Notes under the pieces: generated by a model
The model's database searches: none
Told to the model about the DNA's origin: nothing
What the model saw: the letters and a program-made list of their open reading frames with translations, nothing else
Translations under genes and position numbers: made by a program
From: Blasia pusilla
Lineage: Eukaryota
Assembly (NCBI GenBank): GCA_050084515.1
Contig: CM114271.1
Location: 49,042,001 to 49,106,000 of the forward strand
Reading direction: 5' to 3'
Length of the DNA: 64,000 nucleotides
Shown here: positions 5,351 through 45,769 of the stretch, in pieces
Layout: the number at the start of each line of letters is the position of its first letter
Numbering within the stretch: position 1 is the stretch's first letter

Positions 5351-6364
5351 GAGAAGAAAATTTTGTGAAATCATAGTATGTTCATACTTAGTTTTAATCA
5401 TAGTATGTTCATACCAAAACTTAATTTTACCAAGGAAGTCCATTCTTACCTACCTCATTATGCTTCAAGGGGTAAGAGAGTAAGGGATGTATAGCAATCT
5501 TGGAAATTGTGAAGAAGAATTATGGTTGTTTGAACAAAGAAGAGATTGAAGTGGTATAGTTATGTGAAGATAATAACTTCTTCAATATATCTAAACATGT
5601 TCTATTTAAGGATAAATCACAACATATAAGGATTCTAAAGATTTCTTCCCACTTGGGAAAAATTCAAATTAAAAAGAATCCTTTTTAATATAATTTTGTA
5701 ATATGAAAGAACATCTCATTTTTGGATGACTCTTTGGAATGAGTATAGGATGCCAAGATGCCATCATCCTAGCATTCGAATGCTCCCAAGATAACAAAAA
5801 AAAATTTAGGTGCACGATAAAGCGTGCCATGGTTTCTCCAATTGTTATTTTGTTGGATAACCGCAAAGAGATCTTTCATTTGGCTAGTCTAAGAGAGAGA
5901 GAGTCTATTTTTGTATATGTATCTTGTTAGATTTAGGAGTGCAACCTTTGATGTTGGGAAATGAGACATTCATAGGTTTGGGCATGACTCGAATCGATGT
6001 TGAGGGTAATCCATTCAAGATATAGACATCATTTTATGGGGTTCGTACGATATAGTTTATCATCCTATAAGAGGTCACTGTGAGGCTTAGTCCAACATAT
6101 ACATCCGATTGATGAGTCTGTGGTTCAAGCCAAGGCAATAGTGATTCATGTAGAGTCCTATAACATCTTGGTTGGTAGAGTAGTGTTGTACTCGATGGCT
6201 CCGATGGTTAGCAACTAAGCATATATATAGATGGTGTCGGGTGAGACCTTCGTACAAGACAGAGATAAGTTACAAGAACCTGTAATAACAAGGAGTGTTA
6301 TATATGTTTTCACGCTTGGATACTACACCGATTATGTGGCATATTCCATGAGAGGGTCGATTGA

Positions 6365-6870
6365 AGATTCTAGTGTTGGATCCCTTTGGAGGGTTCTACT
6401 CTATGTTGGTTATTGTGATATAGGCAAGAGTGTATAGAAATACTTGTATGTGGAGCGGGATGAGGTTGTGAGGCCCATCTCACTCCAACATGTGGCATAG
6501 ATGCAACTTTATTTTCTTGACTTGTTACCCACGTCGACCATGCAAGGTTACAAAAGTTCCATACCAAAGGATATTTCCTTCTTGGGTGCATACGATCTAG
6601 AATAGATGGAAACCATTGATTTGGTCATTCATGTTGGCTATAGTAGGTTAGTCAAGTGTTGGATGAGTTTATGTTTTCCTATTGCCTATGCATATAAGTA
6701 GGTTAGTCTGGGTTTGGTTAGGATGATCAACACAATGGTTGGTAGAGCCCAATGCCAATGAGAGGGTAAGATGGGATTCCCCATAAGAGTGATGGTAGTA
6801 TCATTACTATTATAGAAGTCCTAACATCATATTTTGGGCCAAGCAATAGACCTAAACTGCTTGACATTTA
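6365..6870 (+). pseudogene. Degenerate C5 DNA methyltransferase domain (older element copy)
   Basis: Motif I ILVLDPFGG (~6367-6393), motif II YLYVERDE (~6441-6464), motif IV lead-in TIDLVI (~6612), motif IX-X region LVEPNANER..MGFP...ILGQAIDLNCL (~6740-6865). Frameshifts and stops present. Confidence 0.8.
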
Positions 6871-9014
6871 TTCTCAATCTAGAAGTAGTACGTTGAGCAA
6901 CAAAGTTGCAAGAGGTCATCTTTGTTGCATTTGTTAGCTCAGTGCCCATCCAAATAATACAAGAAGTGGATGGGGGCTAGATTAGAGATTAAGATATGAG
7001 AGGGGATCAAGAGAGACATCCATGCATGGACTTTATAGGAAGTGATACAAGTGCACCAAGATATGGCAACCACTACAATTGGCATGTTGATGATGTTGTG
7101 CAACAAGGAACATAGGAGATGAGATGTTTGAGTTGGCTATAGATGAGCAATTAAGTGTCATTAATACTTATGGGGTTACATTATAGCAACCAAAATCCAT
7201 GCTAGACAGTCTTGTAGTAGTCACGATGGAAACTTGGGAATCACATATTGGTCCTAAGTCAACAAGAGGAGATCGGTTCTTGAGGGATCATAGTAGTTGT
7301 TTTGGATTTAGTATGCATGATTTGAGTATACTGAAGGATCTAAGGATACGCATTGAGTTATCTAGCAACACCTCGATCTTTCAATGCTTCTATAAGTGCA
7401 AAAATAAGGAGAACAAGGGCCAAGAGTTGGTTGAGGCAAGACTAGTGAAGATCTTGCGTGGAGAATATGCACTTGCCACAATCATGCCCGCTAAGAAGGA
7501 TGCGAGCTCCCGACATTGGATTTATCTCCTGTGAAGAACTTCAGGATTGACCCCTGTGATGGGTGCTGATCCTTTGCACCTCCTTTCCTTGGTATGCCTC
7601 TCTTCCACACCTTAATGCCATCTCTACAACAGCCTCTTTGACCTCAGAGGCATCCAAGTGATCCCAACTAACCAAGTGTTGTCTCAAATTATGATCCAAA
7701 TTCAGTTTCTTTGGGCACATGTCTGTATGCAACTTTCTACAGACTCTACACCTGATCTTAAATAGGTATGACGTATTGGAATACTGAGGATCCGTGGGAG
7801 ACGGTGTCACAAAAAACACCTATGTGTCACCCCCAACATCCTCATTCAGTTGGGTGACAATATCCACTCCTCTAGAGATGGCCTCACCATGATCAAATTG
7901 AGGTATGTGAACGTCACTAGGCTCCATCAGTGATGTAGGAAATTTTCTTCTCTTACAAAAGCTATCCTTATGTTTTGAGTTAACTATATACTTTGTCCTA
8001 AAATTGCTAAAGCAATTTGCAATAGCTTTCACATTCTGAGAGTTCTATGCATTCCCATAGTTCACTCTACACTCCAAACACTCTAGATGTCCTCTGTTCC
8101 ATCATCCCATGTCCTCACCATCCAATTATGGTCCTTGTATCCATTCTTCTCAATCCACTTCCATAATCTCATGAACTCATCATTCCAGCATTTGGCAGCT
8201 TGCTCTACCATCAATACTCAAACGAGGCTTGCACAAGACCTTGGTTTGTGACATCAACCGAACTCACTGGATGTGCCTGGGTTTCAGTATGGTTCTCCAA
8301 CACATGAGCTGAACTCGCTATAGTCTCAGAGACAGTAGACATTGTGGCTGCAGAAGATTGGGAGGACACTCGCGTTGTCCTCCCACAAGGGCCAACACGT
8401 AACTGTGGAATGACACATACTATTCCATCAATAGAATTACCTTCTTTGCATTTTGGTGCATTCTACCAGTGAGTTTGAAATCCCAAAAATCAAAATCAAA
8501 TTCCACAATTCCATAACATTTCATATGCATGTCTGCTCGTGACTGCCCTTCTTTGTAACCTAGAACACAAATTGGCTCATCGTTTTGTCCTTCACCCCTC
8601 TTTTCAACCAATCTGATACTATCTCTAATAGAGGTCAACATTGGACACTACGGGAATACACAGAAAAACTTGTTATATAAACCACAACAGAGAATACAAC
8701 ACCATAAATCAGATCCAAACGAATTGTATTATCCAATGCCACCTTGCATTCAATCTCACTCAAAGTTGCATTCTTTGAAACAAGTTTCATAATTTTGAAC
8801 GCAACTCACAAACATTGATGTCATCTCCTTCATTTAAGACATTGCAAATGGATCCATAAAAGAACAAATTTCTTTTTGAATACTACAACCTAAATCCCAA
8901 AATCCAATGGACCAACTTGTTGTATGAACTGATGTTAAAGTCTCTATTGCATTTATCCAACAATTGGAGTATCCTGGAAGGTAGTCCTATTGAGGCTAGT
9001 CCCATGGCGAGATC

Positions 9015-9630
9015 AATCGCAAGTAGGCACAAATTTTCCCTCTAGAATGGTATGATGACGACAATACACAAGTTGCCATTTGCCAAAATTCCACCTGCCA
9101 TTGACATCACAACCTTTGTGTAGGTGTTTCTTGCCTCCTGAGGTCTGATCATAACACCAAGCACAGGGGCATCAGTGGCACTGCACTAAATCTTGGTACA
9201 TCTTGCACGTATCATAATAGTGACATAGGCATATGAATGCATCAGGAGCAGCGACAAGGTTATCTACTATATGGGTATGCGGTAGTCCTCCAACAAGCAA
9301 ACGGGTTCTCATACAATCCATGTCATAAAAGGATTAACAATCATGGTGAGCACACTTGATGAGCCGTGTCTCAAACTCCGTATGTCCAACAACACGACCC
9401 ACTAGCCCACAAGAGAAACAGATGGCTCTGTCATGAGCACATAAGTCACACACCCAAGTTCCATTCCAATAGTGATTTCCAAGCAGTACAATAGGGATGC
9501 AGGTCTAACCCTTGCCACTATTTGGGTTGGTGGGAAGGCCACCTCCAACCCAATGAAAGTGGTGATCACAAGCACCATCACAAAATAGAACATCACCTCC
9601 CTCATCACAAGAAAAGTAGCATGGGGGATC
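9015..9630 (-). pseudogene. EDM2/NSD-type tandem PHD-finger cassette, pseudogenised
   Basis: One frame with 3 stops: CYFSCDEGGDVLFCDGACDHHFH...WVCDLCAHDRAICFSCGLVG...LIKCAHHDC*SFYDMDC...AFICLCHYYDTC...LVQCH*CPCAW...LVYCRHHTILEGKFVP. This follows the Cys/His pattern of the EDM2 N-terminal PHD region. Confidence 0.75.
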
Positions 9631-10129
9631 CATCCAATGATGCTCAGCATAAGAGTACCGATCTAACAGGTGAACATTCGTCATTGTGTGTATGAGGTGT
9701 CCAATGATTCTTACCCACGGCATAGAATAGTCTGTGGTTCTGGCTCTGTGTGATCCAAAACTTGGAACAATACTCCACTTGTGGTCAAATCCAATGGCCT
9801 CCAATAGGGTTGTCACTTCCCTGTGGGCTCCTTCAAACAATCCTACACAACAAACAGAATAACCATGTGCAGTCAGGAATTAGTCACAATTATAGATGCA
9901 CAAACTTCACAACAAACAAAGCAATAACATATGCACATATTGCTAACTTGGTAACACCAAAAGTGTTCATTTCATTCTAACTTGTACTCACTGTTATACA
10001 CATTCATACATTCACACCCCTATACCCACAACAAAATTAATTGTCTCTCTCTCATTGTCTTCAGTAGGATTTAATGGCATCACATGAGCTATGGTTTTCA
10101 CACTATGATAGTCACTACTTAATGAAGAA

Positions 10130-11071
10130 AGTATCACTTCACTCCTTAGTGTCTTACTTTGAATTAACAACACAAAGAGCAAGAGCATATGTTGATCTTG
10201 CTAAGCGGGTCGCACCAAAAATTTTCAACACATTCAATAGACTTCATTTAATAGAGACAAAGATATTGAGTTGGAGATCAGAACCCACCTTTGGTTTGCT
10301 GATTGTAAACCACTTTGAAAGTTGAAACCCCCTATTGAGAGGATGAGCCAAGTCTACACATACATTAAGCATCACTAGCTGGGTTGGATACACTTGAACT
10401 CATCATTCCAATCAGTAGACTAAATTCATTGCCCAAAGAACATATGTTGATATACATTCAATAGCCTTGATTTATTGCCCATGGCTCGTGCACTAGTAAG
10501 TAATGTCTAATGGGGATCCCAAACAAGTAAAGTACAGAGCAAGATTAAACCTTGATGTTCATACAAAAAAAAATACAACACATAGAGCAAGATTAAACCT
10601 TGATGTTCATTGCCCAAAGCTATTGTGTTGATAAGTAATGTTCACTGGGAATCCCAATTAGGTAAAGTAGTGACAAGTCACTACATGAAGACGGTCTCTC
10701 TCCTGGTCTCTTAAAAGCAAGGAGGAAGCCATGAAAATATCAGGCCTCTATCTCCTGTCCTTGGTTGATAGGTATATCGTGAACAAGCAGAACTAAAAAA
10801 CTATTTTTTGGGAACCCCAACTTGGGAACTCGTCTTAAGTTCAAGTTTAGGATGAGAGAATTCCCTTAAACTATGAGAGCTAAAATCTAGAGCTTGTGTG
10901 ACGACAAGGATAACATCTCTACTCACTACTTGGTCTCTTGCATAAAATTCACAAAAAATACAGCAAGAGCATTAGTCGATATTGCTTAGTTGGTAACGCA
11001 TTCTACACATTCTGTAGCCTAGATTCATTGCCCAAAGCTACTGCACTGGTAAGTAATGTTTATTGGGGATC
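10130..11071 (+). mobile_element. Cluster of at least four short 3'-end fragments of the LINE family found at 34.1-38.8 kb
   Basis: Repeated matches to the LINE C-terminus (ARAYVDLAK.VAPK.FNT; cattgcccaaag...gtaagtaatgt...ggggatccc = SLPKA.ALVSNVYWGS) at ~10130-10250, ~10410-10535, ~10605-10670 and ~10780-11071. Confidence 0.8.
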
Positions 11072-14000
11072 GAGGAAGGATGTGCATGGAAAGTGGACGG
11101 ATATGCAGATGTTTGGAGATTAGATTTATCGGCCTGACAATCAATTGACAAAGTTTGATAGGTATGTTATCCCTACTTTTGAGGAGATCCTTGATGCTAT
11201 TAGGCCTGCAAATATCTTCACTTTTCAATCTAGTATCGAGATCAAAGATCTAAATATCTTTAGATCTTGAAGTTGGATACCATCAACTGTCTATTCAAAT
11301 GAAGGATAGGTGCTCATGAGACGGAATGTTTGTGCTAGTGGTGATCCTTACCATTTGGATTAAAGAATGCCCCAAAAAAGTTTTGTAAGGTCATGGATAG
11401 GATCTTGGGCTGAAGCTACATCAAGGCTAGTGCAAGTGCAAGTTCTTTTATTATCAAAATGACTGCTTGGGTCATACCATATACCCAAGTAGCCTTGATG
11501 TTCAAGAGAGGAAGGTAGATGCTATCTCACAAATTCCACGCCCTACAAATATGAATCACGTGCGTGTGTTCCTGGGATTGGCAAAGTTCTATGGATAAAA
11601 TTTCAAGGGATTTAGTGCCATTGCAAAATCCCTGACCTTTTTTACCAAGGATGGATTATACGGATCATGAGTGGTAGTGGGGGCATGAGCAAGAGAGAGA
11701 ATTTTAGTTGCTTAAGGACATATTGATGTTTGCGCCTATCTGAAGGAGACCTATGGAAGGGCATCCTTTCCAGTTGCACACAAATTAGAGTTTTTTTGTT
11801 CTAGGAGTTTTGTTCACCTAACATATCAATGAGGATTGTTTAGGATGGTTGGCTATGGAGAGCCATATCATGGTGGCTTCAAAAGTGAGGTCATTGATAA
11901 ATTAGAGTCCTTAGATCTACAGGGTAGTAGGATGCGATATATAGATGGTCGAGATATCTACATGGATGGGATGGTTTTGGAATACCTATACCTATATATA
12001 TATATATATTGGTACCATTGTGAGCATGGTGGGTGCTAGAAAGCAAGATCAAATCTTGCAATAAGTCATACTATTTAGGTAGGAGGAAATATATGATCTA
12101 ATTTACAAGTTTTAGAGGGTGGTAGAGTATGAGTGATGCCTCATCCTTTGCCATGAGCATGATTGATGTAGCATGCGTATGAGTAAGGACACTTTGCAGT
12201 GAAGCAGACATATTGCTTGCTCCATGTATAGTTTTGGTGGTGAGGCATATAGAAAAATATACAAAAGTTTGTTTCCATATGCATGGTGTTTGATCAAGTC
12301 CAAGGATTTTTCAATACTCTGACTCCACCCTTACATCCATTACTGATCATGGGTTTAGGCTAAAGATGGAGTTTGGATTTTATAGGGCCTTTACCTTTGA
12401 TATATCTCCAAGTCATTATGAATTAATTGGTGTTGTTCAAGCACTTATCAAAGTAGATAGAGATGGTTGTAATATAACCATTATTGTAGGATTAATCTTG
12501 CTCTCTAGCACGCACCATGCTCATAATAGTACCAATAATATTAATGCAATATTTGGGATATTTACGCACATCCTCGTAAGATAATCTTCTCTCATAGTAT
12601 GAAAAACTCGCTTTGCTAGTCCATTGACCTCAAGATGATCTTGCAAAGTGGTGTGATGGTCAATCAATACCTGATTACATAAGGTTGGAAACTATTGTTG
12701 AGATTTTGTACCCTATTTTGTCAACACCTCCGTTGGTGCACCATATTGACTCAATACTCAATCTAGGAATGCATATTGTAGGATTACTATACTATGGTTT
12801 TATGGTTTTTATAGCCTCATTGGGCAATACATTCAAGGGGGTCTTACAAAATCAAGTTATGGCAAACTTCTCACATGATTGTGATACAAAAGCAATCCCA
12901 TTGATTATAATGTTACAACTCTTTATATGTTGGGAAAAAAGTGGCTTATAGACACCAGTAGATGAAGAAGATAGAAGAACATACGACACCAATTACTTTT
13001 GTGCAAATAGTGTAAAGTTATCTAAGACTTCCCTCATAAATAAATGAAAATTATTTGGATAATTGTAATTTTTGCGTGAATGGATTTTGATACGGTCTAG
13101 CTAGTATTATACTATTGTGTCATTATTAATATGTACCAATCATAAAACAATAATTTAATATCTAATAACCTTGAATCTACAAACCCATCCCCTTGCATCC
13201 CTTCAAGTTGCAAGTGTGATGGTAATATAAATGTCCAAAAAATCTTAAAATATCACAAATTTGCTAGTGGTCATGTAAGTGTTGTCACATCTTAGTTAGC
13301 CGACAAGTAGAGTTCTACCGCATCGACCACATAGAGGGTAAGCGGGTTATCTGGGTGTAACTTTGTCTTGAGATATTAGATGAGGTTGCGGATTGGCCTA
13401 TTGTGTGAGAAACATCATCTCTCACGATTTCCCTTTTTGGGTCTTTATTGGCCATGTAAATCGTTGACCGAGTCAATGGTCACCTAGTAGCATGTGTTGG
13501 AAGGTTACTGTTTGAAGGCTATTTTTGGGGGAAGAGCCAAAAGGCTCTTTCCAAGGCTGAGAGAGAGAGAGAGAGAGAGAGAGATGTGGCCTTCCCCATC
13601 CATCTTTCTGATGTTGGGCCTTAGGAGTACCTCTCTTGCATGTGTGCGAGTGTAGGAACTAGAGCGCGATTGTCAAGATTCCCTCATAGTAGAGGGTGGA
13701 TATGGCTCGAAATGCCAATGAAGATTCAGGAATGGAGTCTTAGGTTGGGTGGGTTATTTTTACTTTGATTTTACATGAGAAAGATGTGAGGGGGCAAACG
13801 GGAATTTGTTGTATGTAGGTAGGAAAAAAAGTTTCCTTGATGGGGAGCCCTTGGAGATGCCGATTGGCATTTGTTTTTTTGTTTTTCCGTCTGAACGTCG
13901 TGCATAGAAGCGCTACTTGTTTCTCACTAATTTTAGCTTCTAGCGGTGTATGGGTAGAGCAGTATTAGAGTTACGGACATGAGCGCTTGAGTGTAGCATT

Positions 14001-14249
14001 TACATAATTACGTCGAGATAGTGGCGTATGTTGAGAGCAAGAAAGGAAGAGTGTTGAGTAGGTCATGGAGGTTGCCAAACCACATGGAGCCATCAATGTT
14101 GACCGTATAGAAAAATGATGGGTGACGTGTTCATGCTAGCCATTGGAGTCCCTTAACTTGCACTTGTTTTGTGTTAGTTAGGGTGTTGGGTATCAGGTAG
14201 AGCGTAGACTAGATGGATATAGGGATTGTGACTAGTGTAGTCTCCTTGC

Positions 14250-16805
14250 TGTAATGTACAAGAGGTATAAGAATTGATCTTTTTACAGTAATTTAGCGGT
14301 CTGATCCCCAAGAGGATCATGATTATGTGGAAAGAGAGGTGAAGATGTCGTTTATCTTGTAATAGTTGTTATTAAGTGTATATAATTCAGATTCAATGAC
14401 TTATCAATGTCTTTATATCTCTCTGAGTACCAAGATTTCTTTCCTCTATTCTCTCAAGTGGAGTTGAAATCACGCTGTCGTATAGTAAAATCAACCATTA
14501 AGTGTAAACTCCTTCGTCATTAAGTGTTAGATAGAGTTTCATACGTATTAAATAAATTGGCTTAGAAAAAGGAGATTCTTATGTTTAAACCTCTTTATGG
14601 TGCCTCTTTTATGCGGGCCCAACTTTAGGAAAAGGAGGTAATAAATAAAAGATGACTTTATAAAAGTAAAGTAGTTGCTTTAATGAAAAGCAAAAGTAGT
14701 CTTGGTTGGTGGCTAGGTTAGTTGGGGTAATTTGAAAAATATCATGTGGGTAAAAGAGGATATTTTGGAAGAGATAAGAGGAAATCTACTTGTGTCAAAA
14801 TGTGATTGGCTAAGCCTTGGGAGGAAGCCATGTGGCACAAGATAAGATAAGCTCTATTTCGTACTCTTGTGGATCCCTTGTGGGTATATAAAGAGGAGGG
14901 ACCTTCAAGGGTTCATCACCTTCTATTCCACATCTTGAGTCTCTCGTGTCTCTCTTGAGTGTATGGCTTTGGGATTGCTTGCTCTTCCAATGAGAGTGGA
15001 TCACCCCTCTTGGGAGAGTAACTTGATCATGGTCTATTCTTCGAGAGGTTTCTAGAGTGTGGTGTGTGTGTGTGGGGGGATGAGAGGTTTGTCACCAGAG
15101 AGGAGTTTAGTCATACTAAAATAGCGGATGTTTTGGCTTGTTACTTTCCCAATGAGAGTGGATTACCCCTCTTGGGAGAATAACTCCGCCAAAACCCATT
15201 CTTGAGGAGAGTAGAGAATGTCCATCAAGCATGGATAGGGGTGGAGCAATTTAGTGTGCCCGACTTTCCTTTCCTCAATCCTTACCATGTCAAGGTACTC
15301 TTTGTAGATAGGCACTGGTTCACTCGCTATTTAGTTTATCACTTTGGGGAGGCGTTCATGAACCAGGTCATGCAATCTCCAAATCCGATGATTCTTCCTA
15401 TCGTTACATATGGAAGGACATGGGATTGTATTTGTATGTCCTTATATAGCGATCCATGGATGTCAATAGGCCTGGTCAAGTAGGGTTTAACACTAGTTGT
15501 GCTATCTTCCTCGTGTACAAACGTAAAATAGTTTATAGGGATTTTATAGTTAGGAATTTCGGGGTCCGATGTTACGAAGAAGTGATCGCCTCGGCACTTC
15601 CATTTGTGATACCTATCGTGAGAGAATGGAGAGTGTACATCATAATTTTGTAGTGAAAAAGGAGAACTTATTAGAGATTTCACCTTGCATCGACCGCATC
15701 TACCGCAGCTAGAAGGCCCGCCCTTGCTCGAAGAAAGATTCTCGACACGACAACGCTGAGGTAGATCTTCACTCAACATTAAAGAACCTCACAGAGATCT
15801 CAACAAAAAGTTGGCTTCTCCTACTTTCGGAACTCAATCCGTCTAGGCAGGCTACTCTCTGTCAAACAGATGTCTTACAACTCCGTGTTGATTATTCTAT
15901 TGATGAAAAGGTTCTCCTGATTCAATCTTCACATTGTAGACCCAATGAGAATACTCAAACATATACATCGTACATCAGAATGAAGAAATGAGTACTTTAC
16001 TACTCCATCAAGAATGAGAAAGCTTCAAAAGTGTAAACAAGTGTGAGAGGATACTACTCTCTTGCTCGGACCATTCTTACAGCATAAGGACTTCGTAAAA
16101 GAATGATGAGGATAGCTACTTTCATGCCTCTTAAATATTCTCCGAAATAGGAGTGGTTCTAAGGATTCGAAGCGTTCTTGAGGAATATGGTGTCTCTTCA
16201 AAATTTGTAACTACCTAGATCTATGGTGCTCTTTTCTTTTCCTATGATCCCTGAGCGTAACTATACTAACTTCCTATTTGATACAAAAAGTGGCGCCTCT
16301 TCCTAGTCTAACTGTTCTAACGGTGTGCCGCTTGAAATCAATTCGATTGTTAGCTTCGTTTCGATGTGAAGTCTGGACCTCTTTTGCTTCCTTTGAGGAC
16401 GAAGCTCTTCCTCTTGATCTGAAGACAAAGCGCTCCATTCTTCACTTTTATTCCAGGGGCTTCGTTCTTCATGCTTCGATAAAGAGCAAAGTACTTCTTG
16501 TTCTTCTTCTTCATCATGCTTCGTTCAAGAGCGAAGCACTTTATAAACAAGTTCTTAATAAGGCTTCGTTGTCTTTTCCAAGCTTTGCTCTTAGTCTTTA
16601 GACTTCCTTACTCCATTTCCATCTCCTCTAAGGAAAATCCTTGATTTTTCACCTCTCTGCCTTTTCCTAGGAGCTTCATGATTTCTTTCATTATTACTCA
16701 TTCTTCTACTACACAAACATAATATCCAAAATCATTATGTATACACAAGTTTTCTTCGAATAAAAAGTTCTAAATCTTTAAAAGTACAAAATTGCGGGTA
16801 TCATA
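14250..16805 (-). repeat. 3' LTR of family C (about 1.28 kb plus an inserted solo LTR B)
   Basis: Bounded by the element terminus and the polypurine tract. Its right end matches 26580-26673. Confidence 0.85.
14476..15752 (+). mobile_element. Solo LTR, family B (copy B1)
   Basis: TGTCGTATAG...CACGACA, flanked by 4-bp TSD ACGC (14472-14475, 15753-15756). Highly similar to 23633-24912 and to 41199-41467 plus 44773-45768. Confidence 0.9.
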
Positions 16806-16806
16806 T

Positions 16807-16818
16807 ACCCCCTTCCTC
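16807..16818 (-). promoter_or_regulatory. Polypurine tract of family C element
   Basis: Minus strand GAGGAAGGGGGT directly before the 3' LTR. Confidence 0.8.
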
Positions 16819-16973
16819 AAATGTGAGCCGCCCCGGCGAACACTTCATGCTGCACCTTCTAAATTCATAAAAGTATCGTCTAAACTATCCAACTCAGTTG
16901 TAGGTGGAAAATGACCATGAATAGTGGAAGGTTTATTAGCAATATTGGGGGTGTGATTCCGCATCTTCTCTCA

Positions 16974-18697
16974 CTATTTGATAATAACTAACAAAGTTCC
17001 TAACACTTCGTTCTCGACTAATATATTTGATGGATTAAACAGAGGAAGTTCTTCAAGATTGATCGTGATGTTGGGTACGACTTCCGAGAGAGACTTCGTA
17101 TGATTGTCGAACTGGCATTTCCAATTTTTGTTGACATAATCGATCTCCTCGCTCATCTGTTGTTCGAAGCTCTTGGCTGCTTCCTTGATAAACTCCTTGA
17201 CATCTTCAGGGTCTAACAGCACTTCGTTGAGCAGCTTCTGCTCCGCCTCCAAGACAGCGATCCTACCGGTGGCTTCTGACCATTGTGCCACTAAGTCCTT
17301 GTTAGTTTCTTGTTGTTCTTGAAGTAACTTCAAAGCTTGAGCGTTCTGTGTCGCTACTTTCTTGAACTTGTGGCTGATAAGATGCATTTGTTGTCGGTAT
17401 TGTTGAATCAACTGCAAAGCTTCCTTGACTTGCGAAGCCAACTCATCAGCCCCACACTCCATGTTGATCGCTAAGCTTTCCCATTGGCGTGCATTCCGCG
17501 ATTCATATTGAGCGTGGATGAAATCGCTTTGAGCTTTACGAAGCGCCATCTTAGTGTCTTCGACTTCTTGATTTTGAAGCTCAAGGTTTATCTCTGCTAC
17601 CTTGCGCTGTGCTTCGTTCTCTGATGAAGCTTGCGCCCTACAGATGATGTCATCGAGCGCTTGTAAATATTGGTCCACACCTACTGTGTTGTCAAGGTGG
17701 AGTACTTGCTGTAATTGGTTCATGATAGGAACTGCCAGATTCATAAACCACACCATGTGGTTTGCGGTTTGTGTCATGCAACGAAGAGTAGGGATCTCTT
17801 TGCTAGAGCGAGGCGTCTCCTCGGAGTCTTCCTGCGGTGCTGGCTCTATTTCGGAGGGGATCTCGAAATATACTCTTCCTCGCTTTGGTCTTGGCAGTTC
17901 GGTTGGCCCCTCGTCTTTGCCTCAAGCCAAAGTATGTGGGTGTTGTCTCGGGGCTGCTTCGTGCATCGGGGTGACTTCGCAGCTTCTGGTGGACCCCTTT
18001 TCGCTCTTTCTTGGTAAGCGTACGGGAGTGAATTGCGACCAATCCAGCGCCTCATCGGCCGTCAATTCCTACTTATGAATGTACAAATGGATTAAAAAAG
18101 GAGATAGGAATGACTTCGCACTTGGATGAAGCGCTTCGAGCATTGCACGTACGGCCCATCCACGAATGAAGCGAAGTCGACTCCCGGTGCTTCGGGGTCT
18201 AGGTGCTGTTTCCAGAGGATGTAGCACATCTTAACGAGCTTATTCATCAAGTAGTAAGAACGAGCAGGATAAAACAAAGTCATTAAGTGCTTGCAAAATT
18301 GTCCAAACAAGGGCGGGGACAACGAAGTAGCTTTGTTGCCATTCCTGTCGAGGCGCTCGGATATCACACAGTCGAGTGCCAATAAATCTTCGTGCTTTAC
18401 CATCAATTTGGTGTCATACTCGTACTCCGGAGCGGCCGGGAGAATATAAGTTGTTCACCAATCATCCGGCGTCCACTATTGGGGCTGAGCGCGATACCGA
18501 AGACCCCTTCTCTGGAACTTGGTTGCTGCAGTCAAGAAGCGAAGCTCTCCGAGTAGTTCTCCTGACGTAAAGGTCCAATTAGCTTGAAAAAAGGTCTCCA
18601 TCGATCGCTCCTCGAGTGCTTCGACTAATTCCGGTGACAGCTTTATCAAAGGCATAGCCGCACTTTGTAAGATGGGCGTAGAGTCATCATAAGTCAT
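16974..18697 (-). pseudogene. Additional ORF downstream of pol in family C (globular N-terminus, low-complexity linker, coiled-coil C-terminus), frameshifted
   Basis: ORFs 18476-18697, 18092-18406 and 16974-17777 (267 aa, Q/E/A/L heptad-rich) lie between integrase and the PPT on the sense strand. Confidence 0.6.
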
Positions 18698-18951
18698 GGC
18701 GGTAAATCTATCTCAATGTGCTCCGCGCTTCGGTCGGCTACGCAGCTTTGTGGTGACTCCATCCATGAAACTAACCGTCTGGTTAATCAAGGGGCGGTTG
18801 TATAGTCAAGGCACTATGTTGTTTCTTGGTCGTGACTGTTACAATCCAGACGCATCACTCAGGGTCGGCGCTTTGCCGAAGCCTCAATACCTCTGCGCTT
18901 CGTGCTTTGCATAAGTACGAAGCAGTCTCCCAACTCCCCTTCCTCCCGCTT

Positions 18952-21900
18952 TTAGTCCGGGTAGGGTTGCGGCTCATGATACCTTCGAACATGCATTCCA
19001 TTGACACAAGTTGGGAGTGCTTCTCCCTGTAAGCTCCCCAACTGTAGTGATCCATTTTCATATATTTCTAACACATGGTAGGGTCCCATCCAATTCAATT
19101 TTAACTTCCCGGGGAACTTTATCCGACGGTTATCATACAACACGAGGTCCCCGACGCTTATAGATTGCGGACGTAGATGTCGGTCATACCATTTTTTTCT
19201 TTCATCTTGTACACGTTTGGTCTCGCGTAGAGCCAAGATGCAAGCTTCCTCCAATGCTATTAAGGTCTCATTCCTTCCCTAGAGAACTTTGGCGACGTCC
19301 TCCGTTCTATTTCCCTCCAACACGCGATAAGTGGGCAGAGCCCATTCAATAGGTGTCAAGGGTTGAATTCCATAAGTCAGGTACAACGGGGTATACTTTG
19401 TAGTAACCTTCTCGGCTGTCCGATAGGCCCATAATGCGGCTGCAATTTTCATGTCCCAATCATAGGAATATGTAACCGTCAATCAATTCAATATCCGGCA
19501 GATTAGTCCGTTGGATTTTTCAGTTAACCCGTTGGCTTTAGGGTTGTAGGGCGTCGTCTTCCGATGCTTAATTAGGAAGTGGGACGTTAGAGACTCAATA
19601 GTCTGGTTCAGAAAATGGGTGCCATGATCATTGACTAATTCCAACGGGTAGCCATACCGGGTGATAATCATTTCGTACAAAAATTTGGCCCCCTCCTCAC
19701 TATCATCTTTGCGCGTGGCCACCGCCTCCACCATCTTGGTACAATAGTCGATAGCTATCAAAATATATTTTCACCTCGTTTGGCGGGTGGCGGATGAAAT
19801 AGGTCCCACAAAGTCAATCCCCCATTTTTCAAAAGGAGCTAGGGGCATGATTGGTATCAAAGGCCACCGCAATGTAGCCGTTGGTAGACCCGCTCTCTAA
19901 CATGCATTACAACTCTGAATAAAGTGATCTAAAAGATTTTCTTGACAATATTTTTAACAGCCTAGTGTGCCCCGGAATCGGCCGCATGCATGGCTCGGAT
20001 GACCTAGGGAATTTCAAGAAGCTTCAAGCATCGCCGGTGGATACTCTTATCAAAGCAATTTGAATAGTACTCCCTGACACAACTCATAGGGTCCCATTTT
20101 ATGTAAAAAGATTGCTCATTCCTTTGCTATCATAGGGGCTGGAAGTTGTAGGGTAACCAAGAAACAAAAAATATTTTCATAGAGGGATTGGCTCAATCGG
20201 TCCTCAGTGATTTGGAACAGGTCCTCATCGGGAAAGGTGTCGTCCACGGACTGTGTGAGATCTGCGTTTGTCATCCGCAACCCGGAGAGAAAACTCCCAA
20301 CGGTTTGTATGGACCCTTGGATTACTTAGGAATGACATCAAATGTAAATTCCTGGAGTCTGGCAGGATCCATCGCGTTAATGCAACTCGGGAAAGGTCCG
20401 CCTTGAGTGATCATTGAGTGCAAAATGGTCTACATGAAAGACAAACTCATACCCTAATAAATGATGACGGAACTTTTTGCAAGAGTCTTAAGACCATTCC
20501 CAACGCCTCCCCTTCGGTAGTGGTGTCTTTTTTATGAGTCAAGATAGCAAACTGCATCTTGAGTCGTGTTTGTTATCATCAAGTTGGCTGAGCACCACTC
20601 CAATGGCAAATGACGATGTGTCCACATATACGTGGAATGGTTTTGCCCAGGTGGGAGACCAAAGCACGGGAGCCGTTCGCAATGCTTCCTCTAATGCTTC
20701 AAATGCTGCTTGGTAGGGTGGGGTCCACTCCCATTTGGTGGCCTTCTTAGTAACAAGTCGGTTAGGGATCTTGATTTTCTCCAACATAATCCTTTATAAA
20801 CTTATTTTTGAGTAATATCCGATGTGCCCTAGGAACCCTCTGGATGAAATGACAAGATTTGTGGGTGGTTCCAATGCGTGATAATATCCATTTTGGCCTT
20901 ATCCTTCAATTCCTTGGGGATGAGGAAGTGTCCCAACAAAATCCCTTGTTTCATGGCAATATATGATTTTTCAGGATGAAGGGATAAATGCACTTCACGA
21001 CAACGAGCAAGGGTTAATTCTAATTTTTGCAAGTGTTCGGCTTCTGTACTGAAGATACAAAAGTCATCGAGGAAAATTTTGACAAACTTTCGCAAATACT
21101 CTTGGAAGATGGAAATCATCATCCGTTGGAAGGTGGCGTTTCATTGCACAAAAATTTTGGATAAAGGTACCCCACCATCCGTGGTGAAGGTTGTGATGGG
21201 CCGATCTTTCTCTCTAATGGATACCCATTAGAAAGAGTACCCATCCAAAAGGTATAATGGTGGGGTACCTTGGCGACTTTGTCCAAAATTTTTCAATGAA
21301 AGGAAGGGGATGATGGTCCTTCAAAGTGGCCGAATTCAATTTCGGATAATCTTGGTAGACTCTGATTTTTCCTGTTGCTTTTTGGGTACAATCACAATGG
21401 GCGACACCCACTCGCTGCTTAACAAGGGATAAATTATTCCGGCTTCGAGACGCTGGTCAATTTTGTTTGTGACTAACAATGAGTATTTTCGGTTTGGGAA
21501 CCGCTGCCATCCAAGGAATTCGGACCGATAAGGCCAACCTTCTTTATATCAATCCAGTGTTCACCATACCGTGATGGAATTCTTGTCATTTCATCCATGG
21601 AGTACGCAAATACATCCAAATACTCAAAAAATAAGTTTTTATACTTAATGAGATTTGTTGGAGACAACAAATCGAGATTTGAAGCATTAGAGACTTGCGA
21701 ACGACTTGTAATTAAGACTCCCACTGGACGCAAAAGTCTTTTCTTGAACCATATTTTTCGTGGAATCGTCATTGCCATTGGAATGTGCTATGACCTAGCT
21801 TCTCTTCCTCTCGGGCCGACCTCTGTTTGCTAGGTGCCGACTCTTCATCTATTTCATAGCATTCTAAAAAATATACGTTAGAAGAGGACTTAGGAGTTTG

Positions 21901-22330
21901 CTCTTGTCCGATGTTAGCCATCATTTATTAGGGTATGGCGTTTTCTCCTTGAGGTGGTCATGATTTCCACGATAGCTCGATGAGTCATTTCAGGGCCTGA
22001 TCCGGAGCGTGGAACGTAAACCGTCTTCTTTTCCAGTCAATGATCACTCTTGCACCGTAAAGCCAGGGTCTTCCAATAACCAAGGGATAGCCAGAGGCCG
22101 TTAAGGGCTGCAACACTAAGTAATCCAATAGAAATAGCACCCCCAACATCGAGGACTTGTGAATTGTCCGAGGGTCCTCTATGAAAATATTTTTTGTTTC
22201 TTGGCGAACCCAGTACTTGTTGGTGGCGGGCTCTACGTGTATCAAAGGGCTTGATTTTGTGCTATCATAATATTGATGGCACTCCCCGAGTCAGTGGGGA
22301 ATTTCTTAATGGTGTGCCCGTCAATCTCGA
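18952..22330 (-). pseudogene. pol of family C (protease, RT, RNase H, integrase), heavily frameshifted
   Basis: YPLVIGRPWL (protease); KIFLDDFCIF (RT); PFHVYVDTSSFAIGVVL (RNase H); AIDYCTK...VNDHGTHF...TTPYNPKANGLTE (integrase core); GKLKLNWMGPY (GPY/F). Confidence 0.92.
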
Positions 22331-22867
22331 CTTTGACTTTCGGGGCTCCCAAATCTTCTACTTCAATGCGGAATAAGTCCACCACCGGCGGACGATTGAC
22401 GGCTTCTTGGTAAAAATTTTCAAGAAAATCTTTTAGATGGGACTTTTACCGTTAACCGGTTATCCATTAGAGCTTGGGTAGTAAGGTGATATTTTTGGGG
22501 TTGATGCCAAATCCCCAGTAAGTCTAGGCCTCTAAAACCATGGGGAAAGTGACTTTGTGGGAGCGCTATTTTCCGCCTTTTAGGTCTTTGAAGATGGTTT
22601 TGATCCCGTTCTTGGTGTCGATCCAAGATGGTGGACCTGGTCCCAAACCTATTCCTTGACGTCGATGGAAGTTTTGGGATGATTATCACCCGGTCAAATG
22701 GTCAAAATCTCCTTTGAGAATGGCTTTTGATCATGCGGAAGGTATCATTGCCTTTGGTCTTCTTGGGTCTTAACGCCCCACTTTCCTAATTAAGATGAAG
22801 CGCCTATCCGGGTCTTGGTTTTCCTCCGGTGCAGGTTTGGACCTCATGGTGACCTAAAGAGCCTTGT

Positions 22868-25845
22868 TCATGATTGAATTGATTGGAGTCTTACATATTC
22901 CCGATTCCCATCGGCCTCCTCTTCCTCGATGGTAACTCGCCTTGCTTTAGGAGATACCAACTCCTCCACTCGGACGAGCTGAACATTTACTTCATTTTTG
23001 GACTCTGTTGGTGCCGTTGGGGTAGTTACATACTTGACCAACAATCGCAAAACCTTGGGCTCCGGGAAGTCCACGGCAGTGTGCCCGCCTTTCTTACAAT
23101 TCCCGCACAACGGATAGAGTCCTACGGGTCTCTTGGTGTTTGGGCAATTGTTGGCCCAATGGTCGGCCGTCCCGTAGTTATAAGTGTAGTTCCTTTTTAT
23201 TGGCGGCGTGAAGGTCGCCACACCCATAATCTGTCTTAGGGGTCGCTACTCCCCGTACTACGGGGGTACATATCTTGGGATCCAACTTTGTCCTGAATTA
23301 GGGGTTGGCATGGCTTGGATTGCATAACATCCTTCCCATTGGTCGGCTTCATACCACCCCTCTTTTGCCGTTGGTTCTTCCTGGATCCCACGTAAATCTC
23401 TCTGAATGTGACATTCTTGAGCAATATGCCCTTGGGTTCCGTAGGCACTGCACCACACGCTGGGTCTCACCAAACCTGGTCTAGTACTTTCAACTCCGCC
23501 ATTTTTTTACTTAACTCTTCTATGGCAGACTTGCCCGACTTCTTCGATGTCCCTCGTACTGGACTGACAGACCTTCGTGGGCCATGCTTGGTAGGCTTGC
23601 CTTTCCTTCCTTGCTTGGGAGTGCAGTAGCGTTGTCGTGTCGAGAGCCTTTCTTCGAGTAAGGGCAGGTCTTCTAACTACGGAAAACGCGGTCGATGCAA
23701 GCCGAACTCTCTAAGAAGTTCTCCTTTTTCAATACAAGATTATTATGTATACTCTCCATTCTCTTACGAAAGGTATTACAAATGGAAGTGCCAAGGCAAT
23801 CACTTTTTCGTAACATCGGACCCCGAAATTCCTAACTATAAAATCCATATAAACTACTTTTACACTTGTACACGAGGAAGATAGCACAACTAGTGTTAAA
23901 CCCTACTTGAGCAGGCCTATTGACGTTCATGGATCGCTATATAAGGACATACAAAGTACAATCCCATATCCTTCTATATGTGACGATAGGAAGGATCACC
24001 GGAGTTGGAGATTGAATGACCTGGTTCATAAACGCCTCCCAAAGTGATAAACCAAATAACGAGTGAACCCATGCCTATCTACAAAGAATATCTTGACATG
24101 GTATGGATTGAGGAAAGGAAAGTCGGGCACAACTCGTGCTCCACCCCTATCCATGTTTGATAGACATTCTCTACTCTCCTCAAGAATAGGTTTTGCCGGA
24201 GTTATTCTCCCAAGAGGGGTAATCCACTCTCATTGGGGAAGTAACAAGCCAAAATATTCACTATTTTAGTATGACTAAACTCCTCTAAGGTGACAAACCT
24301 TTCATCTCGACACACACACACCACACTCTAGAAACCTCTCGAAAAATAGACCATGATCAAGTTACTCTCCCAAGAGGGGTGATCCACTCTCATTGGAAGA
24401 GCAAGCAATCCCAAAGCCATACACTCAAGAGAGACACGAGAGACTCAAGATGTGGAATAGAAGGTGATGAACCCTTGAAGGTCCCTCCTCTTTATATACC
24501 CACAAGGGATCCACAAGAGTATGAAATAGAGCTTATCTTATCTTGTGCCACATGGCTTCCTCCCAAGGCTTAGCCAATCACATTTTGACACAAGTAGATT
24601 TCCTCTTATCTCTTCCAAAATATCCTCTTTTACCCACTTGATATTTTCCAAATTACCTCAACTAACCTAGTCATCAACCAAGCCTACTTTTGCTTTTCAT
24701 TAAAGCATCAACCTCACTACTTTACTTTTATAAAGTCATCTTTTATTTATTATCTATTTTCCTAAAGTTGGGCCCGCATAAAAGAGGCACCATAAAGAGG
24801 TTTAAACACGGGAATTTCCTTTTCCTAAGCTAATTTACTTAATACTAATAAAACTCTATCTAACACTTAACGAGGAAGGAGTTTACACACTGGCTGATTT
24901 TACTAGGCGACAACGTTCGTTGATTCTCTGACTTGCGTCGCCATCACGTATTTTGTTTTGGCCGCCACCATTATCAAAGTTTCGTCATCAACCAATGATG
25001 GCAGATGACCTCTGTTGTGGTGTTTGAGTTTTGATTTTATGTTGCTATGTTGTGATTGGTAGCCTCTCGATGACGATCGTATACCGTGCTGTGATGCTCG
25101 TAGTCGCAACGCGCCGCTGATTGCAGCTTGTGGCCACACCGCACCGCACCGCACCCCGCTGATTTTACTATATGACAGCGTGTACGTCTCTTCCGTTTGG
25201 ATTTCGGGTCCTCTTTGGAGTTTGTGCACTCTGTTGTGCCATCCGTGGAGGCTTGGTGTCTGTAGAGGACGCTTTGTCCTCTGAGGAAGAGCTTGTGTGC
25301 GAAGAGCCTCGCCGTTGATGACGCCGTCTTTGCATTTTTTGGGACTTCTCAAAGGCTTCGTACGCTTCTGCTGATGCAATGACTGCTTCTAGAGAGTCTC
25401 GTTGGCCCCGGCGGCAATACCGGTGCATCTCCTTGGAGAGTCCCAACACAAACCAGTCTACCAATTATGAGGTGGTTGTGTGGTCGAGTTTGTTAACAAG
25501 ACTTCGGAACCTTTGGGTGTATTCCCTCACGGTTTTCTTCTTTTTCCGTTTCAAATCCCGGAGCTTCATCAGAAGCCTGTCCTCGAACTCCAAGTCGCGG
25601 AATTCATGAAGAAAGGCCTCAAGTACCCTCTTCCAGGTTTCAATGACCTCCGCTCGCAGGCCCTCGTACCACTGACTTGCCCACATCTTTAGCAGGACCA
25701 AGAATACTCGTAACAAATCCTCCTCCGAGCCTTCCCCATTAGCCTTAGCTATATGGATAAACTCGAGCACAAAGTTATCGACGTCCTCTCTTCGTCCTCC
25801 CGTGAACGTAGGATATCTTAGCAGCGTCTTTCTAGAGTTAGCCAT
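22868..25845 (-). pseudogene. gag of family C with zinc knuckles, interrupted by the LTR B insertion
   Basis: MANSRKTLLRYPTFTGGRREDVDNF...W..VLEAFLHEF...ETVREY-like; CCHC-type knuckles (NYGTADHWANNC, CGNCKKGGHTAVD). Confidence 0.85.
23633..25177 (-). mobile_element. Composite LTR B insertion (copy B2): full LTR 23633-24912, a 240-bp piece of the DNMT-gypsy 5' region, and a second 20-bp LTR B end
   Basis: 4-bp TSD GCGT at 23629-23632 and 25178-25181. The gag frame rejoins across it. 24913-25150 is the reverse complement of ~44540-44772. Confidence 0.85.
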
Positions 25846-26033
25846 TGGGAAATTTTGGCGGCTAGGTCCCGGACTTGATGTTCGGGAAAGAGGAGGTAGA
25901 GGTTCCGATCTTATCTATCTGGCCGGCCCCTCGTCTCCTTCGTCCCCAAAGGAATTCCAGGTTGACTCTTCGTCCGACTGCGAAGTGGCAAGAGACGTGC
26001 TCGGGATAGCACTCCTGTCCCTCTTCTTGATCT

Positions 26034-33885: not shown

Positions 33886-33944
33886 GACCAAAAAACCAAG
33901 GGATTTGATCCGTCCAAAAACAAATAGAGAGATCTGTCCACGAA

Positions 33945-39170
<5,226 letters not shown>

Positions 39171-41198: not shown

Positions 41199-41467
41199 TG
41201 TCGTGTCGAGAGCCTTTCTTCGAGTAAGGGCAGGCCTTCCTGCTTGCGGCAAACGCGGTCGATGCAAGATGAACTCTTTGAGAAGATCTCCTTTTTCAAT
41301 ATAAAATTATCATGTTCTCTCACGATAGGTATCACAAATGGAAGTGCCGAGGCGATCACTTCTTCGTAACATCGGACCCCAAAATTTCTAACTATAAAAT
41401 CCCTATAAACTATTTTACGCTTGTATACGAGGATGATAGCACAATTAGTATTAAACCCTACTTGAGC
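41199..41467 (-). mobile_element. LTR B copy B3, 3' portion (the rest lies at 44773-45768 because of an inversion)
   Basis: Matches 23633-23912 with a small deletion. Inserted after ACGT (41195-41198) in the family A terminal repeat. Confidence 0.88.
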
Positions 41468-45768: not shown

Positions 45769-45769
45769 G

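Follow-up and report, generated by a model that had tools for sequence, protein, structure and literature searches.

The stretch of DNA analysed here, hereafter the window (64,000 nucleotides from Blasia pusilla), holds two independently inserted, differently aged retrotransposon relics, whose closest relatives among elements come from liverworts and mosses. Positions 5817 to 12790 are very probably the dead remains of an old insertion from a Ty3/gypsy-type family, in whose pol a DNMT3-like domain lies between the protease (PR) and RT and the integrase (INT) is followed by a PHD finger; the younger element at 40.0–52.5 kb, which was inserted separately, very probably belongs to this family too. 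The part of the old copy at 5894–7504 (+ strand) is a collinear, frameshifted and stop-ridden relic of a protease, then a DNMT3-like C5 methyltransferase (DNMT), then the first RT box. The features of the old copy are:

5817–6215, + strand: protease remnant, retropepsin-type aspartic, 5'-truncated (nucleotide homology from 5817; protein match 5894–6200)
6298–6629, + strand: N-terminal part of the DNMT3-like domain (motif I LVLDPFGG, 6370–6393; motif II YLYVERDE, 6441–6464)
6630–6668, + strand: deletion junction; a catalytic core of about 154 aa (IV PCQ, VI ENV, VIII RxR) is gone
6669–6989, + strand: C-terminal part of the DNMT (motifs IX–X; motif X MGFP, 6771–6782)
7220–7504, + strand: DNMT–RT linker and first RT box (…IMPAKKD), cut at 7502–7504
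7505–11048, no strand assigned: foreign 3.5-kb insertion splitting RT, with LINE 3'-end fragments and a PHD-like ORF inside
11049–12474, + strand: remaining RT, RNase H (RH) and the zinc-binding/N-core part of the integrase
12551–12790, − strand: piece of the integrase core, inverted relative to the other parts of the copy

Three-frame translation of the + strand reveals, in this order, the protease active-site box CILLDLGVQPLMLG, in which DLG replaces DSG (near 5925–5965), ILVLDPFGGF (6367–6396), KYLYVERDEV (6438–6467), TIDLVI (6612–6629), and KMGFPIRV plus ILGQAIDLNCLTF (6768–6880). With an intact relative, P0006, as tblastn query and positions 5800–7600 of the window as target, residues 300–400 (protease) matched 5894–6197 (E 1.8e-12), residues 534–567 (DNMT motif I) and 570–638 matched 6310–6420 and 6423–6629, respectively (joint E 1.4e-19), and residues 793–899 (motifs IX–X) matched 6669–6977 (E 1.4e-7); the first RT box ends at 7502–7504. 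The matches ascend along a single strand, and 5894–7504 is therefore free of inversion, in agreement with the order protease–DNMT–RT given in a preliminary description of this DNA, which had also correctly named LVLDPFGG, YLYVERDE, TIDLVI and motifs IX–X. The matched stretch contains at least three frame changes and at least 10 in-frame stops. The protease, placed at about 6000–6200 in that description, is present but begins earlier, at 5894 by protein match and at 5817 by nucleotide homology. The order from the DNMT through motifs IX–X into RT also stands, but not its continuity: reference residues 639–792, with motifs IV (PCQ), VI (ENV) and VIII (RxR), have no counterpart in the old copy, and since just 40 bp separate 6629 from 6669, the catalytic core has been deleted, leaving motifs I, II and IX–X only. 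Likewise, the copy had been read as running into RT by 7502; the first RT residues are found there, but the remainder resumes at 11049, beyond the 3.5-kb insertion. The N-terminal part of the DNMT stops at TIDLVI, immediately ahead of the expected PCQ.

Gag is absent upstream of the protease because of the 5' truncation. Neither terminal repeats nor a target duplication were detected for the old copy, using the A and B repeats of the young copy (see below) as queries and a self-comparison of 12400–14500; we therefore infer, rather than see, that it was inserted by an integrase. Within the foreign insertion, the LINE 3'-end fragments (9897–11071) resemble 34318–34772; the PHD-like ORF (9508–9879, − strand) was considered as a displaced PHD finger of the family, and rejected, its sequence being unrelated.

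Belonging to the same family, the young copy is more complete, with the order gag-PR-DNMT-RT-RH-INT-PHD, and carries a 4.3-kb inversion:

40021–41125, + strand: 5' repeat A1 (40021–40535, beginning TGTCAC) and leader
41468–45767, − strand: inverted 4.3-kb segment with PR (41460–41939), gag (42729–43811, − strand) and part of a repeat, here repeat I (44539–45767)
45765–46801, + strand: DNMT from motif II on; motif IV PCQ reads PW*, and RAHRPRLWWTNL and EQAMGFP are retained
46919–49071, + strand: RT, RNase H and N-terminal part of the integrase
49067–50554, − strand: nested, internally deleted relative (A…B) within the integrase, with a 4-bp duplication, CATT, on both sides
50555–51496, + strand: integrase core and C-terminal PHD finger
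51756–52508, + strand: 3' repeats B1 (51756–51878), A2 (51879–52376) and B2 (52386–52508)

The remaining part of the inserted repeat I lies at 41176–41467. The copy ends in TGTC…GACA, with 4-bp matches at both ends (AATC, a possible target duplication), and its repeats are arranged A…B-A-B rather than as two equal LTRs; those of the nested relative are about 89–90% identical to those of its host element. A full-length relative, P0079 (2358 aa), maps in order onto the de-inverted copy (gag, PR, DNMT, RT-RH-INT, INT-PHD), interrupted solely by the nested insertion, at residue 2033. The PHD finger was matched by Pfam at 51122–51496 (E 1.5e-11). The DNMT of the young copy keeps motifs II, VIII and IX–X, and motif IV in its altered form; the inversion break has removed motif I. 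Reference residues 424–566, which include motif I, have no match anywhere in the 40–52 kb copy, and the old copy does supply the piece missing at 45.8 kb, as had been proposed. Motif VI was not found in register; a string VLEDV at 46049–46066 was dismissed as chance, because it overlaps, in a different frame, a strong match to the preceding helix. Thus, neither copy is functional, the old one being without a catalytic core and the young one without motif I and with its PCQ destroyed, and with no intact copy in the window, statements about function rest on relatives and the literature.

The identification of the DNMT also depends on relatives, since among 142 stop-to-stop ORFs of at least 85 aa in the window, none, in either copy, matched the Pfam DNA_methylase family at E<0.01. 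The family was found above its curated cut-off in seven of nine relatives, and in all 10 of another set, six of which have the order PR-DNMT-RT. Intact polyproteins from Marchantia, Calypogeia, Sphagnum and Closterium show the same order as the window copies, PR-DNMT-RT-RH-INT(-PHD). Among the relatives, 93 DNMT domains are full-length, and the catalytic motifs G-x-[PE]-C-[QE], EN[VT] and RxR..W.N are present in 88, 82 and 83 of them, respectively. The DNMT3-type motifs I, II, IV, VI, VIII, IX and X are unrearranged, complete in the relatives and incomplete in both window copies, which are remnants of a DNMT3-type domain and not working members. When the comparison was made against solved structures only, the closest to the domain were DNMT3A/3B/3C (E about 1e-9), followed by M.HaeIII (5e-5) and plant DRM (2e-3). 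The resemblance to host DNMT3A/3B extends to the order of the motifs, but the E value is only about 1e-9, PWWP and ADD are missing and the domain here forms part of a retroelement polyprotein. Both copies and the relatives have the pol order PR-RT-RH-INT, the DNMT sitting between PR and RT; Pfam found no Phage_integrase (tyrosine recombinase) match, and rve and Integrase_H2C2, indicative of a DDE integrase, are present instead. Relatives of the DNMT number 207 cluster representatives at E<=1e-30. The best 150 matches listed, all element-like and at E<=2e-36, include no host DNMT3, and no Klebsormidium-named sequence was among the relatives retrieved. Together, the database relatives indicate a large family, spread over green algae and bryophytes.

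RT and DNMT trees, quick and unrooted and with long branches in places, were built for the same 40 proteins, each with both domains. Eight of these, from Marchantia, Closterium and this window, have the architecture PR-DNMT-RT-RH-INT, and the other 32, including a Scenedesmus "pol", have RT-RH-DNMT-INT-PHD. In the RT tree, all proteins with PR-DNMT-RT fall on one side of a branch with an SH-aLRT support of 99, and the young copy is sister to P0022 of Marchantia (support 100). The DNMT tree shows the same split (support 93) and clusters the old copy, the young copy and P0022 at 99; most of the well-supported subclades are also common to the two trees. The proposal of the preliminary description that the DNMT was spread by retrotransposition as a stable feature of the family is thus supported by intact relatives of the same order and by largely congruent trees; the strongest support comes from relatives outside the window, the two copies alone being weak evidence.

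Retrotransposons bearing an enzyme that normally silences them are rare and puzzling, and have been documented so far mainly in Symbiodinium and Klebsormidium. Gypsy elements carrying a DNMT have already been described in green algae, and the window copies add a further member. As described in the main text and three supplements of de Mendoza et al. (2018, Nat Commun 9:1341), which do not state its domain order, KnitGypsy-Dnmt3 of Klebsormidium nitens has a DNMT3-type, non-rearranged DNMT inside the Gypsy pol ORF; in common with it, the window elements have a C5-DNMT in the pol reading frame of a Gypsy element in a streptophyte host. Its repeats, according to the legend of Fig. 4c, are DIRS-like, A-coding-B-A-B, in combination with Gypsy domains, and by that legend text the arrangement is also that of the young copy (A1 at 40021; B1-A2-B2 at 51756–52508). 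By description rather than by sequence, the two differ in that the nearest named relatives of the window family are liverworts and mosses (Marchantia, Calypogeia, Sphagnum) and Closterium; moreover, the window family has a PHD finger, whereas the text sections on KnitGypsy-Dnmt3 make no mention of one (de Mendoza et al., 2018). SymbioDIRS-Dnmt3 of Symbiodinium, as presented in the same text, also has a Dnmt3-type domain in pol, A-coding-B-A-B repeats and two coexisting domain orders, but it has a tyrosine recombinase, in contrast to the DDE integrase (rve, Integrase_H2C2), aspartic protease, gag and short target duplications of the window element (de Mendoza et al., 2018). The available text of a 2025 paper and of a 2026 preprint mentions retrotransposon-borne DNMT3 only in "streptophytes", citing de Mendoza et al. 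(2018). For bryophyte Gypsy elements with a DNMT, for the PHD finger and for the two domain orders, no description was found in the searchable literature. Chromoviruses are Ty3/gypsy elements bearing a chromodomain after the integrase; the window family shares with them the Gypsy pol order and the placement of a chromatin reader at the C-terminal end of the integrase, but its reader is a PHD finger and a DNMT is present as well. The window thus provides a well-anatomised dead example and no new mechanism; the wider pattern of two domain orders, PHD finger and bryophyte hosts may be the part that merits more attention.

Could the DNMT-like stretch come from a host DNMT3 gene, of which a fragment lies by chance beside retrotransposon debris? 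The domain is DNMT3-like, and elements are nested in one another in a patchwork across the window; however, the PR-DNMT-RT junctions recur in both copies and in single ORFs of relatives from several species, and neither introns nor companion host domains were seen, so that this origin is scarcely credible. It is also very improbable, if slightly less so, that both copies stem from a segmental duplication of a single element that had died beforehand, in which case they would carry no information on retrotransposition of the DNMT. The copies do lie within one 64-kb window, repeat I (1.3–1.5 kb) occurs near each, and both are broken at nearly the same integrase codon, about residue 2033 of P0079. 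At that site, however, the events differ, being a nested insertion with target duplication in the young copy and an inversion in the old one. The preliminary description had pointed to common flanks as the mark of such a duplication, and blastn and tblastx found no homology beyond the element bodies. Repeat I (n=3, 90–93% identity), which alone occurs close to both copies, differs in its placement: it lies downstream of the old copy, at a distance of 1.7 kb, but within the 5' leader of the young copy. It is also far younger than the divergence of the elements, which are 66–73% identical at the nucleotide level. Segmental duplication is unlikely in view of this divergence, the lack of common flanks and dN/dS values below those of a neutral simulation. 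Of the two copies, the old one has decayed further, as had been claimed: in 706 aligned codons it has 24 stops versus eight in the young copy, its GC content is 0.40 versus 0.52, its CpG o/e 0.29–0.39 versus 0.72–0.87, and G/C-to-A/T transitions number 279 versus 109 in the opposite direction.

Between the old and young copies, dN/dS for the DNMT is 0.45 (95% bootstrap interval 0.28–0.66), estimated from 171 codons picked by protein similarity; the values elsewhere are 0.50 for PR, 0.36–0.45 for RT, 0.52 for RH, 0.40 for INT and 0.41 for RT-RH. A value below 1 was dropped as a sign of selection, since neutral decay simulated through the identical pipeline yields about 0.65–0.70 and not 1, and only the gap from this null was used. 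Values as low as observed were reached in 3/280 neutral runs for the DNMT (11/280 by pN/pS) and in 0/300 for RT-RH. Thus, in the comparison of DNMT with RT that the preliminary description had suggested, both lie below the null of about 0.70, the signal being moderate for the DNMT and clearer for RT-RH. That moderate signal would fit a DNMT hitch-hiking as a neutral passenger, of no benefit to the element, as would the lack of methylation by the K. nitens Gypsy DNMT in a yeast test, a result that its authors deem inconclusive in the text of their paper (de Mendoza et al., 2018). However, the catalytic motifs are retained in 82–88 of 93 relatives, the branching of the DNMT tree largely matches that of the RT tree across deep divergences (35–50% amino acid identity), the relatives at E<=1e-30 form as many as 207 clusters, and the same text gives Ka/Ks < 0.2 for the DNMT of K. 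nitens copies (de Mendoza et al., 2018). A neutral passenger is therefore improbable, though less so than the two preceding explanations.

In family members that are alive, translation of the element RNA would yield the polyprotein, and the DNMT, within pol or after cleavage by the protease, may methylate the element's own new cDNA or the DNA at a new insertion, an idea put forward in the text of de Mendoza et al. (2018). By analogy with the chromodomains of chromoviruses, the PHD finger could direct the DDE integrase to particular chromatin. As for the origin of the module, the window family may tentatively be placed in a large, old green-lineage Gypsy group with a DNMT3-like domain, a PHD finger and two architectures, in which the DNMT was possibly captured once, before chlorophytes and streptophytes diverged, and the module later moved within pol. 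Because the same split appears in the DNMT and RT trees, a single capture and a later move is the simplest reading; such an early event contrasts with a capture limited to the Klebsormidium lineage.

The older of two same-family Ty3/gypsy copies is a decayed relic at 5817-12790 that carries a DNMT3-like cytosine-5 methyltransferase (DNMT); the younger, fuller copy lies at 40.0-52.5 kb. The preliminary description held that the older copy (5950-7502) runs from protease (PR) through the DNMT into reverse transcriptase (RT) without inversion, and keeps the motif I lost from the other copy. In a three-frame translation of 5900-7600, all strings from the PR box to IMPAKKD lie on the forward strand in ascending order, scattered over three frames with stops between them:

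PR box CILLDLGVQPLMLG (+), first in order
6367-6396 (+), ILVLDPFGGF
6438-6467 (+), KYLYVERDEV
6612-6629 (+), TIDLVI
6768-6880 (+), KMGFPIRV and ILGQAIDLNCLTF
ending at about 7502 (+), …IMPAKKD

A tblastn comparison with P0006, an intact gag-PR-DNMT relative of 943 aa, gave the same order:

5894-6197, aa 300-400, protease (E 1.8e-12)
6310-6420, aa 534-567, DNMT motif I (joint E 1.4e-19)
6423-6629, aa 570-638, DNMT motif II to IDLVI (same joint E)
6669-6977, aa 793-899, DNMT motifs IX-X (E 1.4e-7)

By tblastn, aa 639-792 of P0006 (AGWPCQG, ILENV, RAHRPRLWWTNL) have no counterpart in the old copy, since positions 6629 and 6669 are only 40 bp apart; thus, motif I was kept and the catalytic core was lost. 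An RT N-terminal box at 7220-7504 matches the relatives P0012 and P0022 (Marchantia), and is followed by 3.5 kb of foreign DNA (7505-11048) that includes repeated stretches from the 3' end of a LINE (34.3-34.8 kb). The description is confirmed as to order and motif I, and is amended for the lost core and for the insertion that splits the element. In the old copy gag is absent, terminal repeats are not detectable and the last integrase piece is inverted. A PHD-like ORF within the insertion (9508-9879, -) was rejected as the family PHD finger (51122-51496), to which it is unrelated.

With 41468-45767 reversed, the full-length relative P0079 (2358 aa) aligns collinearly with the young copy; the matches and the terminal repeats are:

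40021-40535, repeat A1, starting TGTCAC…, 5' end
43430-42729 (-), gag
41909-41460 (-), PR
45765-47326, DNMT
47332-49071, RT, RNase H (RH) and integrase (INT)
50555-51493, INT-PHD
51756-51878, repeat B1, 3' end
51879-52376, repeat A2, 90% identical to A1
52386-52508, repeat B2, 90% identical to B1, ending …CACGACAA

The layout is A-coding-B-A-B; AATC is found on both outer sides. The breakpoints show that the inversion is real: repeat I, a 1.3-1.5 kb repeat with three copies in the window (90-93% identical), is unbroken at 23628-25146 and 14472-15774, and in the young copy is split between 41176-41467 and 44539-45767, in opposite orientations and precisely at the two limits of the inverted block. 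The other break falls in the linker between PR and DNMT. Missing from the young copy are reference aa 424-566, motif I included; the old copy supplies this piece, as had been claimed. In what remains of the young DNMT, PCQ reads PW*, RAHRPRLWWTNL and EQAMGFP are retained, and motif VI was not found in register. A 1.49-kb nested insertion with CATT on both sides divides the integrase at 49066/50555. Both window copies are inactive.

Compared at the nucleotide level with all other parts of the window, the old copy pairs with the young one as follows:

5817-6198 with 41912-41537 (inverted), 70.9% identity
6423-6667 with 45770-46020, 69.2%
6673-6867 with 46377-46577, 69.7%
7114-7502 with 46819-47240, 66.4%
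11075-11408 with 47233-47551, 68.3%
11411-11824 with 47666-48063, 73.2%
11839-12469 with 48459-49066, 69.2%
12605-12775 with 50755-50585 (inverted), 72.5%

Stops number 24 in the old copy and eight in the young one over the 706 codons aligned; GC at aligned sites is 0.40 as against 0.52, and CpG observed/expected 0.29-0.39 as against 0.72-0.87. Transitions from G/C in the young to A/T in the old copy number 279 (opposite direction, 109), and the corresponding transversions 121 (opposite, 41). The whole pattern is what prolonged deamination of methylated cytosines would be expected to leave. In both copies the integrase is broken at nearly the same codon (12469-12474 and 49066; near aa 2033 of P0079, the two breaks about 5 bp apart at most). 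The young copy owes this to the nested insertion with its CATT target duplication, the old copy to an inversion, after which comes 12481-12541, an inverted copy of 12002-12064. The chance of such a coincidence is roughly 6%, given about 5 x 4 breakpoints in play; a hotspot is possible.

No flank common to both copies was found within the window by blastn or tblastx, which makes a segmental duplication unlikely. Repeat I, near both, is much younger than their divergence and differs in relative position. Mismatch between the copies at codon positions 1, 2 and 3 is 0.32, 0.28 and 0.39. Nei-Gojobori dN/dS on the 706 codon pairs, anchored on relatives' proteins (14 conflicts between references), was:

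PR, 0.50 (95% bootstrap 0.30-0.84)
DNMT, 0.45 (0.28-0.66)
RT N-terminus, 0.45 (0.23-0.79)
RT, 0.36 (0.23-0.57)
RH, 0.52 (0.23-1.34)
INT, 0.40 (0.26-0.62)

Because the codons had been selected for similarity of their proteins, and the spectrum of substitutions is skewed, the young copy was subjected to simulated neutral decay that followed the observed substitution table, and the results went through the same pipeline. Null means were not 1, but 0.70 (sd 0.14) for DNMT (280 of 300 replicates, those with at least 60 codons) and 0.65 (sd 0.09) for RT-RH. The observed DNMT value of 0.45 was reached in 3/280 runs (11/280 by pN/pS), and that of RT-RH, 0.41, in none of 300 by either measure. Both lie below the null; therefore, part of the divergence built up under constraint, with an effect in DNMT of about the same size as in RT, and less secure.

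With the intact 151-aa ORF at 46316-46768 as query, 15 of 884 candidates matched at E<=0.001, the named ones (49-65% identity) from Sphagnum jensenii, S. fallax, Marchantia polymorpha and Calypogeia fissa. A second query, the DNMT region of P0006, matched 68 of the 8000 candidates scored in the length range 518-1651 aa (18 named Marchantia polymorpha, others Calypogeia, Sphagnum troendelagicum and Closterium sp. NIES-54), and 39 of 4869 in the range 1652-4715 aa, one of which is named 'pol [Scenedesmus sp. PABB004]'. With P0004, which is nearly DNMT-only, an exhaustive phmmer search counted 2857 cluster representatives at E<=0.001, falling to 771 at 1e-10 and 207 at 1e-30. The closest solved structures are DNMT3A, 3B and 3C (E 1e-9 to 1e-7), with weaker matches to M.HaeIII (5e-5) and plant DRM (2e-3); the alignment covers motifs I to VIII, then X. 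Of 93 relatives whose domain is full-length, 88 have G-x-[PE]-C-[QE], 82 EN[VT] and 83 RxR..W.N, counts limited to these three motifs, the motif I and X patterns being too narrow for the second architecture described below. In some relatives the catalytic motif is G-W-E-C-Q, not G-W-P-C-Q.

Pfam DNA_methylase exceeded its curated cut-off in 7/9 relatives of a first set and 10/10 of a second. Six of these ten run CCHC/PR, DNMT, RT, RNase H, integrase; among them a PHD finger behind the integrase was detected in P0079 only (P0060 and P0022 are partial and end before the later domains); the other four show RT-RH, DNMT, INT and PHD. This second architecture (P0057, P0086, P0089, P0092, P0096 and others) is the commoner, at 32 of 40 proteins with long DNMT and RT matches, PR-DNMT-RT accounting for eight. 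In the RT tree of these 40, a branch with SH-aLRT 99 separates the PR-DNMT-RT proteins from the rest, and P0022 is the sister of the young copy (support 100); the DNMT tree gives the same split (93) and groups old copy, young copy and P0022 (99). The two trees, both quick and unrooted and with some long branches, largely agree, most well-supported subclades being common to both and a few long-branch proteins (e.g. P0115, P0066) placed differently. The absence of shared flanks, dN/dS relative to the null and the agreeing trees support the earlier interpretation that the DNMT is a stable family feature spread by retrotransposition.

Elements of this kind, Gypsy elements carrying a DNMT, are already published. 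For KnitGypsy-Dnmt3 of Klebsormidium nitens, de Mendoza et al. (2018) describe repeats of DIRS-like type together with a Dnmt3-type DNMT that lies within the pol ORF and shows Ka/Ks < 0.2; a reviewer response in the supplement states that A1 and A2 flank the ORFs and two B repeats flank A2. In yeast, the DIRS enzymes of Symbiodinium methylated CG sites de novo; no methylation was seen with the Gypsy enzyme of K. nitens, a result termed inconclusive (de Mendoza et al., 2018). In live family members a gag-pol polyprotein would be translated, the DNMT domain may methylate the element's own cDNA or new insertion, as those authors proposed, and the PHD finger may target the DDE integrase to chromatin. 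Marchantia is absent from the three searchable supplementary files of the 2018 paper, including DNMT gene counts per species. A 2025 paper and a 2026 preprint mention retrotransposon-borne DNMT3 in 'streptophytes'. The literature covered yielded no account of members from bryophytes, of two domain orders or of the PHD finger; the 2018 paper's main supplement and the bioRxiv supplements lie outside that scope and may bear on it.

Besides alpha-tubulin exons (Tubulin, Tubulin_C; 2-562 and 1052-1756, +), with CpG observed/expected near 1 in contrast to the decayed repeats around them, the window is transposon-rich eukaryotic DNA, a Ty3/gypsy patchwork with one LINE and simple repeats (GC per 2-kb bin, 0.31 to 0.54). 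The host is probably a streptophyte, and its elements resemble those of bryophytes. The LINE (34313-38205, -) has RVT_1, zf-RVT and an endonuclease-like ORF; at 9897-11071, within the insertion splitting the old copy, lie several stacked partial copies of its 3' end. Long (TC/GA)n microsatellites lie at 33881-34191 and 38736-38916; directly 3' of the (GA)n tract is a short dynamin-like GTPase piece (38960-39142, +; Dynamin_N, E 4e-17), probably a gene fragment. A Ty3/gypsy element lacking the DNMT, bounded by 91-bp direct repeats (93% identical), comprises:

16713-26671 (-), whole element
25468-25914, gag
22871-23245, CCHC
20832-21140, RT
19486-19770, rve
16977-17921, open 315-aa coiled-coil-like ORF

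A third, gag-only fragment of the DNMT-carrying family (28740-29759, +, and 29759-29974, -) is GC-rich and shares 42-50% aa identity with Marchantia gag regions; its nucleotides could not be aligned with the young copy's gag. The shared end of repeat I, …CGACACGACAACG, is similar to the end of repeat B, and repeat I could thus represent a related element's terminal region.
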